Position numbers and translations under genes: made by a program. This document shows, piece after piece, positions 1,469 to 19,443 of a stretch of DNA of 20,000 nt. How positions within the stretch are numbered: the stretch's first letter is position 1; each line of letters begins with the position of its first letter. The DNA comes from an uncultured virus (IMG/VR IMGVR_UViG_3300028364_000031) (Duplodnaviria > Heunggongvirae > Uroviricota > Caudoviricetes), in IMG/VR virus record IMGVR_UViG_3300028364_000031. The stretch is one strand, 5' to 3'. The notes beneath the pieces are model-generated. The model was not told the DNA's origin, ran no database searches, and saw only the letters and a program-made list of their open reading frames with translations.

Positions 1469-1681
1469 TTTCCGCAGCGGATGTCTGTGCATACTCGATT
1501 GCAGTCGAGCATATACACAAGTCTCCTTGCTTAGATGACTGGATTTGAACCAGCGACTTCCACCCTCTAGGCGGCACTCTGACCTGACTGAGCTACATCT
1601 AACTTTGTGAGCACTGCAAAATTGCAATACTTCTGAATACTTCGGATTTCACCAGCACATCTTGCAAGATGTGCTGGTTAC
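1469..1681 (-). ncRNA. Structured RNA module A with embedded tRNA-like core
   Basis: Minus strand order: 28-nt perfect palindrome (1651-1678), ATTCAGAAGTA, hairpin, TGCTC, AAAG, tRNA-like core, CAAGGAG, hairpin, ATCCG-CTG-CGGAAA. Module B has the same order. Confidence 0.7.
1531..1602 (-). pseudogene. tRNA-like element with 5-nt anticodon loop and no encoded CCA
   Basis: TTAGATG-TA-GCTC AGTCAGGTCA GAGT-G-CCGCC TAGAG GGTGG-AAGTC-GCTGG TTCAAAT CCAGT-CATCTAA-GCA. Confidence 0.8.
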
Positions 1682-1899
1682 TTTCCGTTGCGGATATGCC
1701 TAAACATGTTCATAGGCTCCTGAGTATGATGGTTGGGCTTGAACCAACGACGCCCGCTTGTTAGCGGTGCTCTACCAACTGAGCTACATCAAACTTTTTT
1801 CGAGCATTATAATACAGTATTATAATACTTCTGAATTTAAAGGCCGTGGTGGAAAGGTTATTTACGGTGTAAAAAGTTTAACCACCACGGTGCTACTTT
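1682..1899 (-). ncRNA. Structured RNA module B with embedded tRNA-like core
   Basis: Minus strand order: AAAGTA, CCGTGGTGG/CCACCACGG hairpin, ATTCAGAAGTA, hairpin, TGCTC, AAAG, tRNA-like core, CAGGAG, hairpin, ATCCG-CAA-CGGAAA. Confidence 0.7.
1725..1793 (-). pseudogene. tRNA-like element with 4-nt anticodon loop and no encoded CCA
   Basis: TTTGATG-TA-GCTC AGTTGGTA GAGC-A-CCGCT AACA AGCGG-GCGTC-GTTGG TTCAAGC CCAAC-CATCATA-CTCA. Confidence 0.8.
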
Positions 1900-1929
1900 A
1901 CAAGCGCAATCTACATTTCGTATATCTAG

Positions 1930-2130
1930 TAGCATTTAGAATATACAGACTACGCCAGTTTACTACATTGTGTCTGATCTTTACGTAGGCACAATTTTTT
2001 TACTGCTTCAAGCTCATTTATTATGCAGTACCTTTAAATGCTATCAGCTAGTACCTGATCACATCCAAAAATACAAATGAGCCTGTTTATTACATTGTGG
2101 CAGAGCGGCTGATTGCTTTTTTTACCACAA
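1930..2130. ncRNA. Candidate structured intergenic RNA with possible pseudoknot
   Basis: Nested complementary segments 1930-1938/2035-2043, 1967-1975/1987-1995, 2001-2006/2025-2030 and 2095-2100/2125-2130. Loop segment 2012-2019 is complementary to 2075-2082. Confidence 0.4.
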
Positions 2131-2160
2131 CAGCTATATTACATCAACTGCTATTATTTG

Positions 2161-2964
2161 TCAACGCTTTTTTGTGGGAAGTTTCTTAAAAGAGTAATTA
2201 TCAAACCCTTTGGAAGCCGCTAGGCTTTTGTCATCCACTTCAGCCATCATAGGCTCACTCATAAAAGTTGCAACAAATGAATGCAACTCTTGATATGCCG
2301 TATAAGGATCAATCATTTTTTGAATACCATATTCTTTAAGTGTGACATTTGTAGATAGACAATATTTACTACCGTAGTAGTACCTGCCCAAGTTTGTTAT
2401 GTAACTGCCGCAGAATATAAAAATTGGTGCGGCTAGGGATTTGAATAGCTCTGTAGCATCTACATCAATTTCTCCAACAATGTAATTACTATCCTCAAAA
2501 TGCTTTAAAAGAGTTTTTTCTGCCAATACCTGCCAGTGATTATCTAGCACTCCCACATTTGTTTTCCTGAAATGGAATAGGGAATAAACTTTACCAGCAA
2601 GTCCTAATATGGAATGCATAAATTCATATCCGGGGTAGCTTTTTAACAGAGTTTGCGCAATACGTGAGGCACCTAATATACCTTTTTGTTTTGGCTTTCC
2701 TAAAAATGTTCTATTTGCATCACCATTAAAAATGTCAATCACTTTACTAGAGTTAAACAAGTTCGCAACTTGTTCCTTTGCTTCAGATGATATCCCATTT
2801 CCTTCTAATTTATATGCATCAACAACATTATCATCTGTTGACCATCTATATGTGGGAACTTTTATAATGTCTTCGGCTGGTACTCTATGATAGGTAACCC
2901 TAGAATCATGCCCCATCTTCATAATGGAATCGTAATAGTCATGAGTTTTTGAAATTATTAACAT
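2161..2964 (-). CDS. Hypothetical phage protein
   Basis: 267-aa ORF with upstream AGGA RBS; N-terminal HDYYDS and C-terminal DPYTAYQE...KGFD..SF motifs are typical of a phage hypothetical family. Confidence 0.85.
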   Translation of the reverse strand: MLIISKTHDYYDSIMKMGHDSRVTYHRVPAEDIIKVPTYRWSTDDNVVDAYKLEGNGISSEAKEQVANLFNSSKVIDIFNGDANRTFLGKPKQKGILGASRIAQTLLKSYPGYEFMHSILGLAGKVYSLFHFRKTNVGVLDNHWQVLAEKTLLKHFEDSNYIVGEIDVDATELFKSLAAPIFIFCGSYITNLGRYYYGSKYCLSTNVTLKEYGIQKMIDPYTAYQELHSFVATFMSEPMMAEVDDKSLAASKGFDNYSFKKLPTKKR

Positions 2965-2991
2965 ATTATTATCCTATTATGTTTAAAAAAT

Positions 2992-3019
2992 TGGCGCACC
3001 CGGCATGAGCTACGGGCGC
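2992..3019 (-). pseudogene. Acceptor-stem-only tRNA remnant (Arg-like microhelix with GCCA end)
   Basis: GCGCCCG-TAGCTCATGC-CGGGTGC-G-CCA: 7-bp stem, start of the D arm, then the 3' end. Confidence 0.7.
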
Positions 3020-3055
3020 AATATTTTCACATTATAATCCACTTTTCCTAAACAG

Positions 3056-3286
3056 TCAAATATCCTCGGCATCGGTATATAAATCTTCTTCAAGAGAATC
3101 AATTTCATCTTCAAGAGAATCAATTTCATCTTCAAGAGAATGTATGAGCGCTATAATCTCTACCTGCCCCAGTTTTGATAGTTGGAGCGCTGTAGCATCA
3201 AAGCGCTTCTGCACAGCTTCATGCATGGCTTTTATGGATTCTTCTAATGCTTCTTCAGCATTAAGAGGTTTGAATTTCTTATTCAT
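3056..3286 (-). CDS. Small acidic coiled-coil hypothetical protein
   Basis: 76 aa, AAGGA RBS, internal 21-bp tandem repeat (SLEDEID x2 plus SLEED). Confidence 0.75.
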   Translation of the reverse strand: MNKKFKPLNAEEALEESIKAMHEAVQKRFDATALQLSKLGQVEIIALIHSLEDEIDSLEDEIDSLEEDLYTDAEDI

Positions 3287-3328
3287 ACTCTGATTCCTTT
3301 ATAATCTAACGTTTTAACAATTAAAAAG

Positions 3329-3401
3329 TGGCGAAACTGCGAGACTCGAACTCGCATTTATCCGTGCCCCGGACATCTTACCATTAGAAGAAGTTTCGCC
3401 A
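3329..3401 (-). pseudogene. tRNA-like element with shortened anticodon arm, CCA-ended
   Basis: TGGCGAAACT/AGTTTCGCCA terminal stem, D-arm TCT-AATGGTA-AGA, TCCG-GGGCA-CGGA arm, T-arm GCGAG-TTCGAGT-CTCGC. Confidence 0.75.
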
Positions 3402-3532: not shown

Positions 3533-3576
3533 ATTGATTACAACATGCTTATTATAAAAGCACAACTACTATAATT

Positions 3577-3650
3577 TGGTGGAGGATAACGGAATCGAAC
3601 CGTTCGGTCGAGAATGCAAAACTCATCCTGTGCTCCCAACAACATCCCCC
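3577..3650 (-). tRNA. tRNA-Ala(TGC), atypical D arm
   Basis: GGGGGAT/ATCCTCC acceptor with G3:U70, loop TTTGCAT, T-arm AACGG-TTCGATT-CCGTT, ACCA end. Confidence 0.8.
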
Positions 3651-3789: not shown

Positions 3790-3873
3790 TGGTGGTACAG
3801 GTAGGACTCGAACCTACTAAGTCATAGACGCCAGATTCAGAGTCTGGTACTCTACCAGTTAAGCTACTTCCCT
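3790..3873 (-). pseudogene. tRNA with CTG (Gln) anticodon whose 5' acceptor strand is replaced by the end of the upstream CDS
   Basis: D arm, CCAGA-CTCTGAA-TCTGG arm, T arm and CTGTACC-ACCA end are intact. The 5' strand AGGGAAG pairs poorly and encodes the last codons of 3864..4490. Confidence 0.75.
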
Positions 3874-4490
3874 ATTGGTTTTAAGCGGTGGCCTACACCA
3901 ATGCCCGGTCTACCGGGGTATCCCTTTATGCCAATTACACCCCCATTATATGGGTATATTTTCTTGGTTTTTGTGTTGTGATTTCGCCACAAGTTGACAT
4001 CAATAACCTTGGGTGTTCTTTCTAAAACCCGATGGAGGGTATCAATAGCGTTACCACGAAGCCCTGTGGCACATAAGCTGGCATAATCTTTATTATTCAT
4101 CATCTTCTCAGCACCGTTTAAATGTTTGTACATGCTTGGTGCCTCTCCTACTAGGTCATGACTATTCAGCCATAAGTTACATGTTCGGAGCCACCACGGT
4201 GCATAATAGTCGTCATCTTCAATGATAAGAATATGATCAGACGCTTCAACATATTTTAAGCCTTCTGAAATGTTTCTAGCCTGAGTATTTTTTCCGCGTT
4301 CCCATAACGGCTCTGGTCGTATGTGCAAGATTTCCCATTTTGGAATGTCTGCTGGAATGTCCAATGGTTGTCTTCCATCATCGACAATAATCCAAGTTAC
4401 TGGACCCGAATAATCTTGTGTTTTCATATACTCAACACATTTCTCAAAAGCTTCCGGCCTTTCTCCGGTAGGGGTTATAAGTTTTAACAT
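3864..4490 (-). CDS. GT-A fold (family 2-like) glycosyltransferase
   Basis: LITPT..R, WIIVDDG and LIIEDDDYY (DxD) motifs. Confidence 0.85.
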   Translation of the reverse strand: MLKLITPTGERPEAFEKCVEYMKTQDYSGPVTWIIVDDGRQPLDIPADIPKWEILHIRPEPLWERGKNTQARNISEGLKYVEASDHILIIEDDDYYAPWWLRTCNLWLNSHDLVGEAPSMYKHLNGAEKMMNNKDYASLCATGLRGNAIDTLHRVLERTPKVIDVNLWRNHNTKTKKIYPYNGGVIGIKGYPGRPGIGVGHRLKPIGK

Positions 4491-6784: not shown

Positions 6785-7438
6785 TTAGTTCCGCAGTCGC
6801 AGGGTTTGCACTGCTTGTTTCAGATGTTCCTCAATATCCGAAACTTTCCAAAGCATCATATATCTGTCTCCACCACCATCTATAACGCTCTCTACGCAAG
6901 ATGTCGCTGGTAAGTTAAAGGGAGATTTAGTGAGATCAAAATACCTCCACTGTCCCGTCTTTATGTCTTTGTTCTTAAAGTTGGTTTGTGTTATATGGCT
7001 TGTAATCATCACGTACTTACTATTTGAAAGTAGCACATTTTCAAACACTTTGGCTATATCGCCATAAGAAAGATGGAACAAGCAATCTCTACAGAACAGT
7101 AAATCTCCTGTAGGGAGAGGGTCATTAACCAAGTCGATCTGAATAAAAGATATATTTTCAGTAGAAAATTGTTTTTTGTTCGCTTCTACCGCTCCTACCA
7201 CTATGTCTCCACCAACATACTCTATGTTCCATGGAACGCTTTTCATCCAGTAAAAGTCTCCACACGGAATGTCTAAGAATTTTTTAATGTCATATTTTTT
7301 CACAATGGTGGGGATAGCTGATCGTAGTGTTTTCGTTCTTTCCATTCCAGAACTTGGCCCACTACGAGATTCTTCACCCTTCCAAGAGTTTTTTTCGTAG
7401 ATGTTGGTAAAAATTGTTTCGCTATTCATATGACTCAT
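6785..7438 (-). CDS. Class I SAM-dependent methyltransferase
   Basis: FTNIY..NSW..SRSGPSS, FLDIPCGDF, YVGGDIV and DLLFCRDCLFHL motifs. Confidence 0.9.
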   Translation of the reverse strand: MSHMNSETIFTNIYEKNSWKGEESRSGPSSGMERTKTLRSAIPTIVKKYDIKKFLDIPCGDFYWMKSVPWNIEYVGGDIVVGAVEANKKQFSTENISFIQIDLVNDPLPTGDLLFCRDCLFHLSYGDIAKVFENVLLSNSKYVMITSHITQTNFKNKDIKTGQWRYFDLTKSPFNLPATSCVESVIDGGGDRYMMLWKVSDIEEHLKQAVQTLRLRN

Positions 7439-10800: not shown

Positions 10801-11121
10801 CTATTCTATGTGTTCTATCGCTTTACCGGGTTCAGCCTTTTTCCAGTCTGGCCAACTTCTATTTTCATTTTTAGATAGTTTAGCTGCCAATGTATCTACA
10901 ATTTCTCTTGGAGAAACTGCTCCACCTTGACTACGCCATGCCCCATCGAACGCTAGGAGTATTACATCAATCCATTCCTCCAAATCCGTTGGGTCTTCTT
11001 CAATTTCTAGAAGTTCTTTTCGGATATGATTAATTGCACCCCTCCAATTGTTGTTAGTGGGTGGGCCGAAGGTTTTTGCACTAAACTTTTGTTGTCGTTC
11101 AAGATGTTCTTCTAAGTTCAT
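10801..11121 (-). CDS. DUF550 dATP/dGTP pyrophosphohydrolase-domain protein
   Basis: FS.KTFGP, HIRKELLEI..DPTDLEEWIDVILLAFDGAWR and K..KN..R.WPDW motifs. Confidence 0.9.
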   Translation of the reverse strand: MNLEEHLERQQKFSAKTFGPPTNNNWRGAINHIRKELLEIEEDPTDLEEWIDVILLAFDGAWRSQGGAVSPREIVDTLAAKLSKNENRSWPDWKKAEPGKAIEHIE

Positions 11122-13732: not shown

Positions 13733-13880
13733 AATGTAGGAAAGTGAATAGCGCCTTTTTAAAAGTCTGTTGCTCTAACCATCTGAGCTACCTCTCAACT
13801 TGTTGAGAGGGCAGGACTCGAACCTGCGACCTACAGATTACCATAATTTGTAGAAGGATGCACTAAAAATGGCCTACATT
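13733..13880 (-). ncRNA. YrlA/Y-RNA-like RNA with circularly permuted tRNA-Lys(TTT) domain (unit 1)
   Basis: AATGTAGG/CCTACATT outer stem enclosing TCTGT, T arm GCAGG-TTCGAGT-CCTGC, closed acceptor CCTCTCAAC/GTTGAGAGG, D arm GCTC..GAGC, then ACAGA-CTTTTAA. Confidence 0.8.
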
Positions 13881-14116: not shown

Positions 14117-15000
14117 CTGAAGACTGAGATTACATCTTTCAGATGGATGCCTTTGGACCGTACCCAGACCTTTGCGTTCAGCCGGTTAATCCGTTATCCA
14201 CTAAGACGCGTTAGCTATCCTAGTATCATCCAACGATGCCTTTTTTAAGGTGTAGCTGTTCACCTGTCATACACTACTACTCGACCTTCGATCTTCCGCT
14301 GACCTTCAGGGCCATTCAAAGTCGCTAAACTTTTACGTCTTCTCTCCGATCAAACAACGCCACCTTGCGAGTTTTGTTGCACCAGATTCCGTTAGGTCTG
14401 ATATTAATCGTCTTTAATAGTTGTACCGAGGCAGACTTTCGCTTTGAAAACAATAATGGGGCTTGAACCCACAATATTCTGATATTGAGTCAGATGCCTG
14501 TACCAATTCGGCTATATCGTTACCTACCAAGAAGTGCTGCCTCAGTTGCTTCATACCTTGTTAGATACAAAATACAACACTCCTCACTGTCTTTTGCCTT
14601 GCGAGCTACTTGACATCTTTTCACGACTGAAGCGATTAAACTTCTTCCGATCAAGATGGTATAGAGCATCTTTTGCGCGAACAATCGAACTCTACACCTA
14701 CACCTTAGTATTACGTGCTCATCGAGTTGGCTGGCAAAGATGGTAGCGCCAACTACCTTATCGCTCACCGAATGGCTCTGCGACTATCCTTTCGGACCTT
14801 CACCCTCAATTTCACACCTACCGCACTTATTATCATACGGGAAAGCCTTAGAGTCTACACTCGTACTTTCTAACTGGTGCTTGCATGACTTGACCCTTAC
14901 GGGACGGGAAAAATGTAGGACATTTTCCCTTTACTACGGTTACCCGTAGCAAGCATTCATGCTTTAAACTGCTGATCTGAATCTTTCGATCTAGATCATG
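14117..15000 (-). ncRNA. Large structured ncRNA, GOLLD-like (~880 nt)
   Basis: No credible ORF and GC-richer than the flanks. Many GNRA-capped hairpins (GATC-GAAA-GATT, CTACGG-GTAA-CCGTAG, CCC-GTAA-GGG, TCC-GAAA-GGA, CTC-GCAA-GG). Dedicated promoter, 3' GTAATCTCAG end, embedded tRNA and phage tRNA-cluster context. Confidence 0.8.
14449..14521 (-). tRNA. tRNA-Leu(CAA)-like element embedded in the large ncRNA (short variable loop, U37, no CCA)
   Basis: AACGATA/TATTGTT acceptor, GCC..GGC D arm, TCTGA-CTCAATA-TCAGA arm, GTGGG-TTCAAGC-CCCAT T arm. Confidence 0.75.
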
Positions 15001-15006
15001 TGATAC

Positions 15007-15035
15007 ATATTACTATCTTATTTCCAATCTGTCAA
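15007..15035 (-). promoter_or_regulatory. Sigma70-type promoter of the large ncRNA
   Basis: TTGACA-17nt-TAATAT; predicted start near 15000. Confidence 0.8.
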
Positions 15036-15063: not shown

Positions 15064-15345
15064 TTATTGGGAATAGTTTTTTATGATTTCTTCACCGATA
15101 GAAAGTTGGGTTTCGAACGTATCACCACCCATTTCCATTTTAACTCGAAGAACCCCATACCTTCCTTTAGATATATGTGCTTCCTTTACTCTGAGGGTGA
15201 CCTGTTCAAGTGCTTCGGCCATAAACCTTTCAAGTATATGACCCGGACAGTTGTCCGGGTCGGGTAGATAACACTTAGTCATAAAGTCGGCCAAGCTGGC
15301 TTTAACAAAACCATCTAAGTCCTCCACATAGCGCTCCAGTTTCAT
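15064..15345 (-). CDS. Hypothetical protein
   Basis: 93 aa, TAATG coupling to the vWA gene. Confidence 0.75.
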   Translation of the reverse strand: MKLERYVEDLDGFVKASLADFMTKCYLPDPDNCPGHILERFMAEALEQVTLRVKEAHISKGRYGVLRVKMEMGGDTFETQLSIGEEIIKNYSQ

Positions 15346-15938
15346 TACTGGTTGGAAGCCCTATAACTAGCTACAGTTTGACTCATGTCTACATATGCAG
15401 CACTTACACCGTCGGCTGTTGCCCTAAAGTTAATATTGTTGGAGATGCCTCTACTGGCACCTTCCTCAAATGCATCTTGATTTGCCGCTAGATATACAAT
15501 CTGCCAACCTTTTTCGCCTTCAGCTTTCTGTATCATCTCTTTAATCTGATAATTGTTATATTCCTTACTGGCATTTTCCATACCATCGGTTATAATACAG
15601 ATAATAGCTTTTTCAGGATTCTTTTGCATCAATGTGCTTATGGCTTTACCAATTGCATCATTCATAGCAGTCATCCCTCTAGGACCAATAGTTTTTAATG
15701 GTTGTACTTCGGCTAATGGTACAGAATTGAGTTTTACCTCATATTGATCATCAAATAACACTAGAGTTAGATTTGCATCACCCTCTACCGCTTTCTGTTC
15801 GGTGAGGAAAGTGTTGAATCCTCCAACCGCATCAGATTCGATACTGGACATTGATCCTGATCTATCCGCAATAATTAAAATTTCTACGGCATCATTTTCT
15901 GTAAATTTAAACGGGACGTACTCTGCGTACTCTGACAT
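15345..15938 (-). CDS. von Willebrand factor A (vWA) domain protein
   Basis: MIDAS motifs DRSGSM, GMTAMNDA and IITDGMEN; AAGGAG RBS. Confidence 0.92.
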   Translation of the reverse strand: MSEYAEYVPFKFTENDAVEILIIADRSGSMSSIESDAVGGFNTFLTEQKAVEGDANLTLVLFDDQYEVKLNSVPLAEVQPLKTIGPRGMTAMNDAIGKAISTLMQKNPEKAIICIITDGMENASKEYNNYQIKEMIQKAEGEKGWQIVYLAANQDAFEEGASRGISNNINFRATADGVSAAYVDMSQTVASYRASNQ

Positions 15939-18222: not shown

Positions 18223-18298
18223 TGGTGGAACCAGCAGGATTCGAACCTGCGACTCTTCGATTATCAGTCGAAAACTCTGACCACTGAGTTATGGTTCC
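18223..18298 (-). tRNA. tRNA-Ile(GAT)
   Basis: GGAACCA/TGGTTCC acceptor, TTCGA-CTGATAA-TCGAA anticodon arm, ACCA end. Confidence 0.95.
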
Positions 18299-18305
18299 TT
18301 AAAAT

Positions 18306-18382
18306 TGGTGGAAACGGTCGGAATCGAACCGACAACAGAGTACTTGCAAAGAACTCTCGCTACCCTTAGAACATGCGTCCCC
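18306..18382 (-). tRNA. tRNA-Ala(TGC), atypical D arm
   Basis: GGGGACG/CGTTTCC acceptor with G3:U70, loop TTTGCAA, GTCGG-TTCGATT-CCGAC T arm, ACCA end. Confidence 0.8.
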
Positions 18383-18395
18383 AATGTTTAATGTT

Positions 18396-18471
18396 TGGTA
18401 CAAGGTACTGGGATCGAACCAGTTTCTTTGGTTTTTCAAACCAACGCTATGACCACACTAGCTCACCTTGC
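18396..18471 (-). tRNA. tRNA-Phe(GAA)
   Basis: GCAAGGT/ACCTTGT acceptor, TTGGT-TTGAAAA-ACCAA anticodon arm, ACCA end. Confidence 0.92.
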
Positions 18472-19083: not shown

Positions 19084-19443
19084 TCATGTTAGCAGTTTTA
19101 AATGCTTCAAACCTTCTGCCAACTCCATTGGGATTGGTCCTATTCCTACGCAAGTTTGTGTGGGTCCCCCAAAAACCGTAAACCCGGAATCTACCACTTT
19201 GGTTATTCCACAAACATCCATATACTTGGAATACAATTCTTCTAGCTCTATTTGTGTATCCACCGCGCAAGTGATCTTAAAAGCGTGATCGGAGTTTTTA
19301 TACGCTTCAGCATATTCTGGAAACCTCTTTTCGGAATCCCAATAAGCATGTAAAAAAGCGTGACCAGCTTGTGAAGTCATTTTACCTCGAATACCATTCA
19401 TTTCTTTAAGAGCTTCTTTAGAAAATATGCAATACATCTTCAT
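19084..19443 (-). CDS. pth2: Peptidyl-tRNA hydrolase, Pth2 family
   Basis: GKMTSQAGHA, KI and VVDSGFT....T.TCVGIGP motifs. Confidence 0.92.
   Translation of the reverse strand: MKMYCIFSKEALKEMNGIRGKMTSQAGHAFLHAYWDSEKRFPEYAEAYKNSDHAFKITCAVDTQIELEELYSKYMDVCGITKVVDSGFTVFGGPTQTCVGIGPIPMELAEGLKHLKLLT

Follow-up and report, generated by a model that had tools for sequence, protein, structure and literature searches.

Two tandem modules with tRNA-like cores in a lake-water phage, probably part of a processed structured RNA

A 20,000-nucleotide (nt) stretch of DNA from an uncultured virus of the Caudoviricetes (IMG/VR record IMGVR_UViG_3300028364_000031), referred to here as the window, carries on its minus strand, between positions 1469 and 1899, two consecutive units, each built around a transfer RNA (tRNA)-like core with a shortened anticodon arm. 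The locus is probably a processed structured RNA, and it is seen in one phage only. The reading we favour, with clearly less than even confidence, is that the locus would specify a non-coding transcript of about 0.7 kilobases (kb) in which non-decoding tRNA-like elements act as handles for RNase P and RNase Z and so release hairpin RNAs.

Two units with constant linkers and variable inserts

A first-pass annotation, made by a model from the letters and open reading frames (ORFs) alone, had described two minus-strand units with a common layout, and both the coordinates (1899 to 1687 and 1686 to 1469) and the order of the parts proved correct. A script anchored on the motifs listed in that annotation cut each unit into 13 matching, ordered segments. 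These run AAAGTA, hairpin 1, ATTCAGAAGTA, hairpin 2, TGCTC, 2-4 nt, AAAG and the tRNA-like core, followed in both units by the discriminator base, 2 nt, AGGAG, hairpin 3 and ATCCG-NNN-CGGAAA. The AAAGTA that opens each unit starts at 1899 and at 1686, a period of 213 nt. By this segment parse, unit 1 (1687..1899, minus strand) measures 213 nt and unit 2 (1469..1686, minus strand) 218 nt, and their folds have z scores of -4.23 and -4.51, respectively.

Conservation between the units forms a mosaic. The linkers had been described as nearly identical, and 43 of their 45 positions are indeed equal, both differences falling in the NNN of ATCCG-NNN-CGGAAA. The linker ATTCAGAAGTA is identical at 11/11 positions between unit 1 (1826..1836, minus strand) and unit 2 (1628..1638, minus strand), where a shorter look-alike, ATCCGAAGT, precedes it at 1639-1647, and AGGAG is conserved at 5/5 positions, 2 nt past the discriminator base in both units. 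The cores are identical at 52/70 positions, a value that none of 300 shuffles equalled, and the three variable segments have an identity at shuffle level (matched or exceeded in 292, 232 and 288 of 300 shuffles). Within the window, ATCCGNNNCGGAAA is confined to the two unit ends (expected count 0.24; two occurrences were reached by 4/200 shuffles). TTCAGAAGTA is likewise confined to the two units, its count by itself being no higher than chance, and GAARGTA is not usefully enriched, with 1 of its 13 matches inside the locus. We suggest that this mosaic represents a pattern of constant handles and variable cassettes.

The pattern had been taken as a sign of selection on RNA structure, and the constant linkers, the unrelated yet paired hairpins and the compensatory changes in the cloverleaf all point that way. 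A role at the level of DNA, as an origin or a terminus, fails to account for the compensatory changes and was rejected. Three narrower candidates were also set aside. The likeness of TGCTC to the rrn boxA extends over 5 nt only, and TGCU pairs within hairpin 2; no convincing repeat-like hairpin was found that would suggest CRISPR-repeat mimicry; and a 12-nt match between hairpin 1 and positions 4191-4202 is no more than chance would give over 5 kb.

tRNA-like cores, very probably non-decoding

Against the Rfam tRNA model (RF00005; gathering score 29 bits), the core of unit 1 (1724-1793, minus strand) scores 42.9 bits and that of unit 2 (1530-1602, minus strand) 48.2 bits. The acceptor, D and T arms are kept in both, as the annotation had it, judging from these scores, from standard pairs in 41 of the 42 pair cells of the two-core alignment and from folds of each core alone, in which the cloverleaf is the minimum free energy (MFE) structure. 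The acceptor stem of unit 2 is a perfect 7 base pairs (bp). Two double compensatory changes separate the cores (acceptor 3-70, U-A/A-U; T stem 50-64, U-A/C-G), together with four one-sided changes that preserve pairing through wobble (two in the anticodon stem and one each in the D and T stems), and pairing falls to 29-50% when the partners are slid by 1-3 columns. Both sequences also keep U8, A14, G15-C48, G18G19, G46 and a TTCAA T-loop.

The part that is reduced is the anticodon arm. The collapsed anticodon loops of the earlier description were confirmed: a 5-bp stem closes the loop AACA in unit 1 (CCGCU-AACA-AGCGG, 14 nt) and UAGAG in unit 2 (CCGCC-UAGAG-GGUGG, 15 nt), as against 17 nt in an ordinary arm, and neither core has a 17-nt anticodon arm with a 7-nt loop, U33 and a purine at 37. 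The stretch from D stem to T stem accordingly measures 20 nt in unit 1 and 21 nt in unit 2 compared with the usual 22-23, and the cmscan alignment places 4 residues where the tRNA model has 6-7. The discriminator base is C in unit 1 and G in unit 2. The lack of a CCA after both cores, noted in the annotation, also stands; CCA is encoded by 10/10 stand-alone tRNA calls in the window, where the only other CCA-less element is one nested in a GOLLD RNA (see below). With short anticodon arms, no CCA and an incoherent amino-acid identity, the cores are very probably non-decoding. No transfer-messenger RNA (tmRNA) was found in the window by ARAGORN, and no Rfam tmRNA match at the locus.

Both cores are called by ARAGORN, which offers an alternative parse with 4-bp stems, a 6-nt loop in unit 1 and a 7-nt loop in unit 2. 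Read in this way they would be unusual working tRNAs, that of unit 1 a doublet or frameshift reader (labelled 'tRNA-??? (ac)', with a 2-nt anticodon) and that of unit 2 a tRNA whose AGA anticodon sits on a 4-bp stem (labelled 'Ser(aga)', although it has no long variable arm). Phage tRNAs with no encoded CCA can reach maturity via RNase BN/Z and the CCA-adding enzyme, as in phage T4. However, at 14 and 15 nt the anticodon arms fall short of 17, the long variable arm required for seryl identity is missing from unit 2, the loop of unit 1 has no U33-like layout and every other tRNA in the window encodes its CCA, and we consider working tRNAs highly improbable.

The cores have their closest relative in tRNA-Pro(TGG) of the phage itself, at 53.1 bits with our covariance model (R1) and E 4e-5 with a profile, where E is the expect value. 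This kinship, the confinement of the locus to one lineage and an acceptor mismatch in unit 1 would all suit decaying, functionless duplicates of tRNA genes lying among ordinary intergenic hairpins, and tRNA-rich phages often hold defective tRNA copies. Neutral decay, however, would not yield linkers identical at 43/45 positions beside hairpin segments that are at shuffle level in identity and still pair, nor would it be expected to leave 41/42 cells paired and compensatory changes spread over each of the four stems, including that of the anticodon arm. A dedicated near-consensus promoter (see below) would also be unexpected. Thus we regard pseudo-tRNAs as unlikely.

The leading idea of the first-pass annotation was a different one, namely that the cores are tRNA-body decoys or inhibitors, which would titrate host tRNA-targeting nucleases or sensors and be uncleavable in their closed short loops. 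Defences aimed at tRNAs are on record, as are phage tRNAs able to escape them (excerpted text of PMC10264068), and this literature makes such a role plausible. The elements of the L-shape are intact while the anticodon loops have shrunk, the same tRNA island holds a third tRNA-like element with a short loop at about 3328-3400, and a YrlA-like mimic and a PTH2 gene suggest that the phage invests heavily in tRNA biology. Known anticodon nucleases, on the other hand, read the anticodon loop, and the two loops are too short, differ from one another and mimic no particular target. Decoys would also leave the nearly identical linkers and the variable hairpins unexplained, and no defence or anti-defence gene was recognised adjoining the locus. 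Taken together, we find the decoy idea distinctly unlikely.

Hairpins of unrelated sequence at fixed places

The variable hairpins had been said to differ in sequence between the copies and yet to stay paired. This holds for five of the six, which are significantly stable against 200 dinucleotide shuffles each (z -3.2 to -6.4, with 0-3 of 200 shuffles equally stable), but hairpin 3 of unit 1 is weak. Hairpin 1 of unit 1 (1837..1893, minus strand) has a 9-bp base, CCGUGGUGG/CCACCACGG, topped by an inner stem (z -5.28, 0/200 shuffles), and its counterpart in unit 2 (1651..1678, minus strand) is a perfect 28-nt palindrome, an inverted repeat with 100% complementarity (z -6.37). In hairpin 2 the base AGUA/UGCU is conserved and the top variable, both in unit 1 (1803..1829, minus strand; z -4.25, 0/200 shuffles) and in unit 2 (1610..1631, minus strand; z -4.22, 1/200 shuffles). 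Hairpin 3 is closed in both units by the pairs GGA...UCC; it spans 1692..1720 (minus strand) in unit 1, with AGGAG at 1717-1721, and 1479..1526 (minus strand) in unit 2, with AGGAG at 1523-1527 (z -3.24, 3/200 shuffles).

The 3' motif of each unit is itself a UCCG/CGGA mini-hairpin, of which the 3-nt loop alone varies. In unit 1 it reads ATCCGCAACGGAAA (1682..1695, minus strand) and continues into the AAAGTA of unit 2, and in unit 2 it is the terminal ATCCGCTGCGGAAA (1469..1482, minus strand), a pattern found only at the two unit ends.

The constant AGGAG could also be read as a ribosome-binding site for tiny ORFs, one of 11 codons in unit 1 and one of about 23 in unit 2, both reading ATC CGC xxx GGA AAx. 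An ATG does follow the fully conserved AGGAG after 3-10 nt, and both frames cross ATCCGNNNCGGAAA in equal phase. We hold this to be very unlikely. The gap from the Shine-Dalgarno motif to the ATG is just 3 nt in unit 1, the peptides are alike only where conserved nucleotides force the residues, the variable NNN acts as a loop between conserved UCCG/CGGA arms, and in both units the base of hairpin 3 engages the GGA in pairs with UCC. Protein coding was rejected for either strand; none of the three ORFs that overlap the locus has a Pfam match.

A promoter-like site and a structured leader

A promoter-like TTGACA-17-TAATAT (2136..2164, minus strand; 10/12 in a consensus scan) lies just past the stop of ORF 2161-2964 and 30 nt upstream of the structured region. 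A second copy with exactly these hexamers and this spacing occurs in the window solely at 15007-15035, upstream of the GOLLD RNA. Between the promoter-like site and unit 1 stands a structured non-coding leader (1900..2128, minus strand; MFE -65.2 kcal/mol, z -3.73, none of 200 shuffles equal), which contains a 24-nt repeat (1954-1977 and 2081-2104, 127 nt apart, 83%) and yielded neither an Rfam match nor a tRNA. No terminator-like site appeared in a scan between 2300 and 1300. A possible promoter inside unit 1 (TTCAGA-18-TATAAT) was discarded, unit 2 having nothing equivalent.

The full 691 nt folds at z -5.88, and the opposite, plus strand folds about equally well (z -6.25), as local hairpins predict. 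Because both strands fold alike, it is the tRNA-like cores and the promoter that assign the locus to the minus strand.

The stability of the whole and the company of the promoter could be taken to mean that the entire 0.7 kb is one large 'ornate' RNA like GOLLD or ROOL, with the tRNA-like domains kept in the molecule, whether for its structure or on display. The GOLLD RNA 13 kb away has promoter hexamers and a spacing identical to those here, and it also embeds a CCA-less tRNA-like element with a TTCAA T-loop. tRNAs are sometimes carried in the linker regions of GOLLD, according to the excerpted text of 10.1101/2024.12.08.627333. In contrast, GOLLD, ROOL and the other Rfam families show no similarity to the locus at E up to 10, the window's own GOLLD is similar to it in the tRNA parts only, and the plus strand has a comparable fold. 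Long-range pairings and pseudoknots have no support, and relatives from which covariation could be read were not found. An ornate RNA therefore seems quite improbable to us.

Searches for relatives

The annotation had proposed a class of non-coding RNA (ncRNA). As a recurrent class this did not hold up: independent homologues with the layout and with covariation were not found, and what is known is one locus with two paralogous units. Its expectation of novelty with respect to Rfam fared better, tRNA being the sole family matched by cmscan in 1300-2250 at E up to 10; in the same interval the GOLLD model (E up to 10) and the YrlA model gave no match. Among GenBank phages, blastn of 1400-2200 at E 1e-5 returned no match, and blastn of the units at E 1 returned only similarity of tRNA to tRNA (e.g. 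to tRNA-Asn and tRNA-Pro of Pseudomonas Bruynoghevirus).

The scans of large collections used exact patterns, four on IMG/VR, one on metagenome contigs of the JGI and one on species-representative genomes. On IMG/VR, ATTCAGAAGTATTNNAAT matched at least 120 loci, with other module features in none of the matches listed; the 3' half of the tRNA joined to AGGAG matched 0 times, as did a relaxed pattern; and TTCAGAAGTA..TGCTC..AAAGTT gave 33 matches, all in coding genes of unrelated abundant phages. The JGI pattern found two contigs, one an identical 1030-nt piece and the other a chance match, and the species-representative genomes gave three chance matches. A profile of the units, run with nhmmer over the gathered loci, recovered self matches and ordinary tRNAs only. 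Likewise, the covariance-model check suggested by the annotation brought up no relative: run over the window and five whole viral records, R1 found the locus itself (105 bits) and ordinary tRNAs (at most 53 bits).

The neighbouring proteins were followed as well, and close relatives of them were not found in IMG/VR. The product of ORF 2161-2964 (267 amino acids, phrog_4243) has 4 matches among 5.8 billion proteins. An alignment of phrog_4243 led to seven distant IMG/VR loci, which contain tRNAs and one GOLLD and the modules in none. These distant homologues (20-41% identity) lie inside tRNA islands in 4/7 loci (L159, L160, L164 and L165), and in 3/7 loci the end of the match is followed by a tRNA within about 40 nt; in L160 the next tRNA is about 450 nt downstream. 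The GOLLD RNA (174.3 bits) belongs to L160, where it lies 1.8 kb downstream, and a small structured RNA at about 7010-7160 of that locus is bounded by a promoter and a terminator. In L165, a phage tmRNA (10562-10945; permuted by ARAGORN, Rfam tmRNA_permuted 108.9 bits) stands within an 18-gene tRNA array.

A proposed transcript punctuated by tRNA-like elements

RNase P and RNase Z require just the stack of acceptor and T arm and the elbow of their substrate, and a 3' CCA is an anti-determinant (an inhibitor) for RNase Z. The part shortened in the cores is the anticodon loop, which is dispensable for both enzymes and differs between the copies (AACA and UAGAG). The processing scaffold that the annotation had named as an alternative fits this anatomy better than the decoy. 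We prefer the punctuated transcript because it covers most of the features: a tRNA body that is kept, a loop that is discarded, the lack of CCA, constant linkers, hairpins at fixed places and the tandem build behind a single promoter of the GOLLD type.

In this scheme, a single promoter-driven transcript would run on the minus strand from about 2128 to at least 1469, the two paralogous modules making up its 3' two-thirds; that the locus is transcribed is itself a prediction. The cores would retain the L-shape and the features that tRNA-end-processing enzymes recognise, having given up the decoding loop and the encoded CCA. RNase P would be expected to cut at the 5' ends of the cores, and RNase Z, or an equivalent 3' endonuclease inhibited by CCA, past the discriminator base. 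The stem-loop RNAs on either side, such as the 121 nt that separate the two cores (1723 to 1603), would thus be freed with defined ends and might then have functions of their own. The constant linkers may be handles for processing, for protein binding or for tertiary contacts, and the unrelated hairpins may be variable cargo or stabilisers.

Several observations weigh against this account. The acceptor of unit 1 contains a U2-U71 mismatch, and a G at position -1 is a 5' context that RNase P does not prefer. The covariation rests on two paralogues and is not significant, 128/500 shuffles reaching the observed values. Hairpin 3 of unit 1 has a z of only -1.19, with 24/200 shuffles equal, and strong hairpins also stand beside ordinary phage tRNAs, for example after tRNA-Trp, so that hairpins per se are unremarkable. 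Finally, no independent homologue was found across the pattern scans of viral, metagenome and genome collections, the profile and the covariance model.

The phage and other RNAs in the window

The source is a large phage from lake water, a single lineage that is the sole known carrier of both modules. The genes of the window are mostly small and on the minus strand, several with PHROG or Pfam matches typical of big phages. A tRNA island is scattered through it, with 12 tRNA calls by ARAGORN and 12 by Rfam, one of the latter (3793-3873) having no ARAGORN counterpart. The modules sit at the edge of this island in a non-coding stretch on which the flanking genes converge. DNA of the locus is present in eight sequencing runs, all of lake-water metagenome DNA, and none of the eight is an RNA run. 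Contigs from four runs over 1300-2300 are identical where they derive from the phage; no population variants were found, and hence none that could be used for covariation.

Other structured RNAs accompany the modules. A GOLLD RNA at 14121-14585 (minus strand; 151.4 bits against a gathering score of 150) is probably transcribed from the promoter-like site at 15007-15035. Nested in it, at 14448-14521, is a 74-nt tRNA-like 'Leu(CAA)' with neither a CCA nor the long variable arm of leucine tRNAs. At 13745-13866 (minus strand) lies a YrlA-like tRNA mimic with a full-length alignment to RF02553 (47.9 bits, E 9.4e-10, below the gathering score of 69). Its topology is the permuted one of Y RNA-like molecules, opening with the T arm and 3' acceptor strand and passing through a loop to the 5' acceptor strand and then the D arm. 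The window showed no recognisable Ro/Rsr (TROVE) gene.

The third tRNA-like element mentioned above (about 3328-3400, minus strand; Rfam tRNA 39.1 bits, no ARAGORN call) has a short anticodon arm with a 5-nt loop, GGGCA, and an ambiguous 3' end, GCCAC followed by a T-run; it has none of the linker motifs of the two modules. A hairpin at 2991-3020 (minus strand; -15 kcal/mol, z -2.0) resembles a bare tRNA acceptor minihelix, with a 7-bp stem whose third pair is G-U and a loop containing TAGCTCA, followed by GCCA. A 74-nt element at 3576-3650 (minus strand) has the 7-bp acceptor stem, T arm and encoded CCA of a tRNA together with an aberrant D/anticodon region, and is called by neither ARAGORN nor the Rfam tRNA model.

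Among the protein-coding genes, a peptidyl-tRNA hydrolase of the PTH2 type (19084-19443, minus strand; Pfam E 1.1e-13) adjoins a tRNA cluster at 18223-18471. A dATP/dGTP pyrophosphohydrolase family protein is encoded at 10801-11121 (minus strand; E 6e-23) and a von Willebrand A-domain protein at 15345-15938 (minus strand; phrog_7371, E 2e-69), the latter with relatives that are 45-50% identical in Xanthomonas and Pseudomonas phages. Two in-frame tandem repeats were also noted, one of 3 x 21 nt at 3084-3146 inside ORF 3056-3286 and one of 3 x 18 nt, Thr/Pro-rich, at 461-514 inside ORF 353-742.

Comparison with known tRNA-like RNAs

With ordinary phage tRNAs (RF00005) the cores share the acceptor, D and T arms, the bases of the tertiary contacts, a location in a tRNA island and scores above gathering. 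They are unlike them in their short arms and loops, in the absence of CCA, in an identity that does not cohere and in the repeated frame of linkers and hairpins.

YrlA and other Y RNA-like molecules (RF02553) are also non-decoding tRNA mimics. They have a topology of their own, however, in which a loop closes the acceptor stem and the anticodon stem opens into a terminal helix, as can be seen in the window's YrlA-like alignment, whereas the modules have the ordinary tRNA topology. The terminal helix of YrlA binds Ro.

Comparable in function may be MALAT1-mascRNA and the bacterial small RNAs from spacers of tRNA operons, where the ends of a neighbouring RNA are set by RNase P and RNase Z, drawn in by a tRNA-shaped element whose anticodon arm is reduced. 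These belong to other kingdoms and have other sequences, and the modules differ from them in being duplicated, with constant linkers, and in being known from sequence alone.

GOLLD (RF02032) resembles the modules as a phage ncRNA beside a tRNA island that has, in this window, the same type of promoter and that embeds a CCA-less tRNA-like element (excerpted text of 10.1101/2024.12.08.627333). The modules are built in tandem, unlike GOLLD with its one conserved 3' domain.

In build the modules resemble the tRNA-microRNA-encoded RNAs (TMERs) of murine gammaherpesvirus 68, of which the excerpted text of PMC4838037 describes eight in tandem, each 200-250 nt long and made of one tRNA-like element joined to two hairpins, with tRNase Z as the processing enzyme. 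As described there, they share with the modules the tandem units of about 200-250 nt (here 213 and 218) and the combination of a non-decoding tRNA-like element with stem-loops. TMERs are peculiar in belonging to an animal virus, in their RNA polymerase III promoters and in feeding Dicer to give microRNAs. The modules, in contrast, belong to a bacteriophage, have one sigma-70-like promoter for the array and carry three hairpins that lie on both sides of the core; the sequences are unrelated, and processing of the modules is a prediction.

Implications

Non-decoding tRNA-like elements as parts of larger ncRNAs are thus an already known kind, and the interest of the present locus lies in its modular frame and in the company it keeps in the phage. 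By analogy with the herpesvirus, we put forward a possible, though on balance doubtful, extension of the preferred reading: the locus might be a phage counterpart of the TMERs, a promoter-driven array in which anticodon-less, CCA-less elements punctuate constant handles and would release interchangeable hairpin cassettes during infection. Under the same proposal, and with the same doubt, it might belong to a broader toolkit of tRNA mimics carried by phages that have GOLLD, with the GOLLD-embedded tRNA-like element, the YrlA-like RNA, the third short-loop element and the acceptor minihelix as proposed members.

Phage tRNA islands are usually seen as codon supplements or as spares against tRNA-cleaving defences; here the shape of the tRNA is kept and decoding is dropped. 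If the cores were decoys, they would stand for a new anti-defence principle. If instead they serve as processing handles, a route to small RNAs that is punctuated by tRNAs would exist in phages as it does in a herpesvirus, and a TMER-like array, if true, would be a previously unrecognised way for a phage to make small structured RNAs. With its GOLLD, its YrlA-like RNA and its odd tRNA-like pieces, this would be a good phage in which to ask why ornate RNAs cluster with tRNAs.

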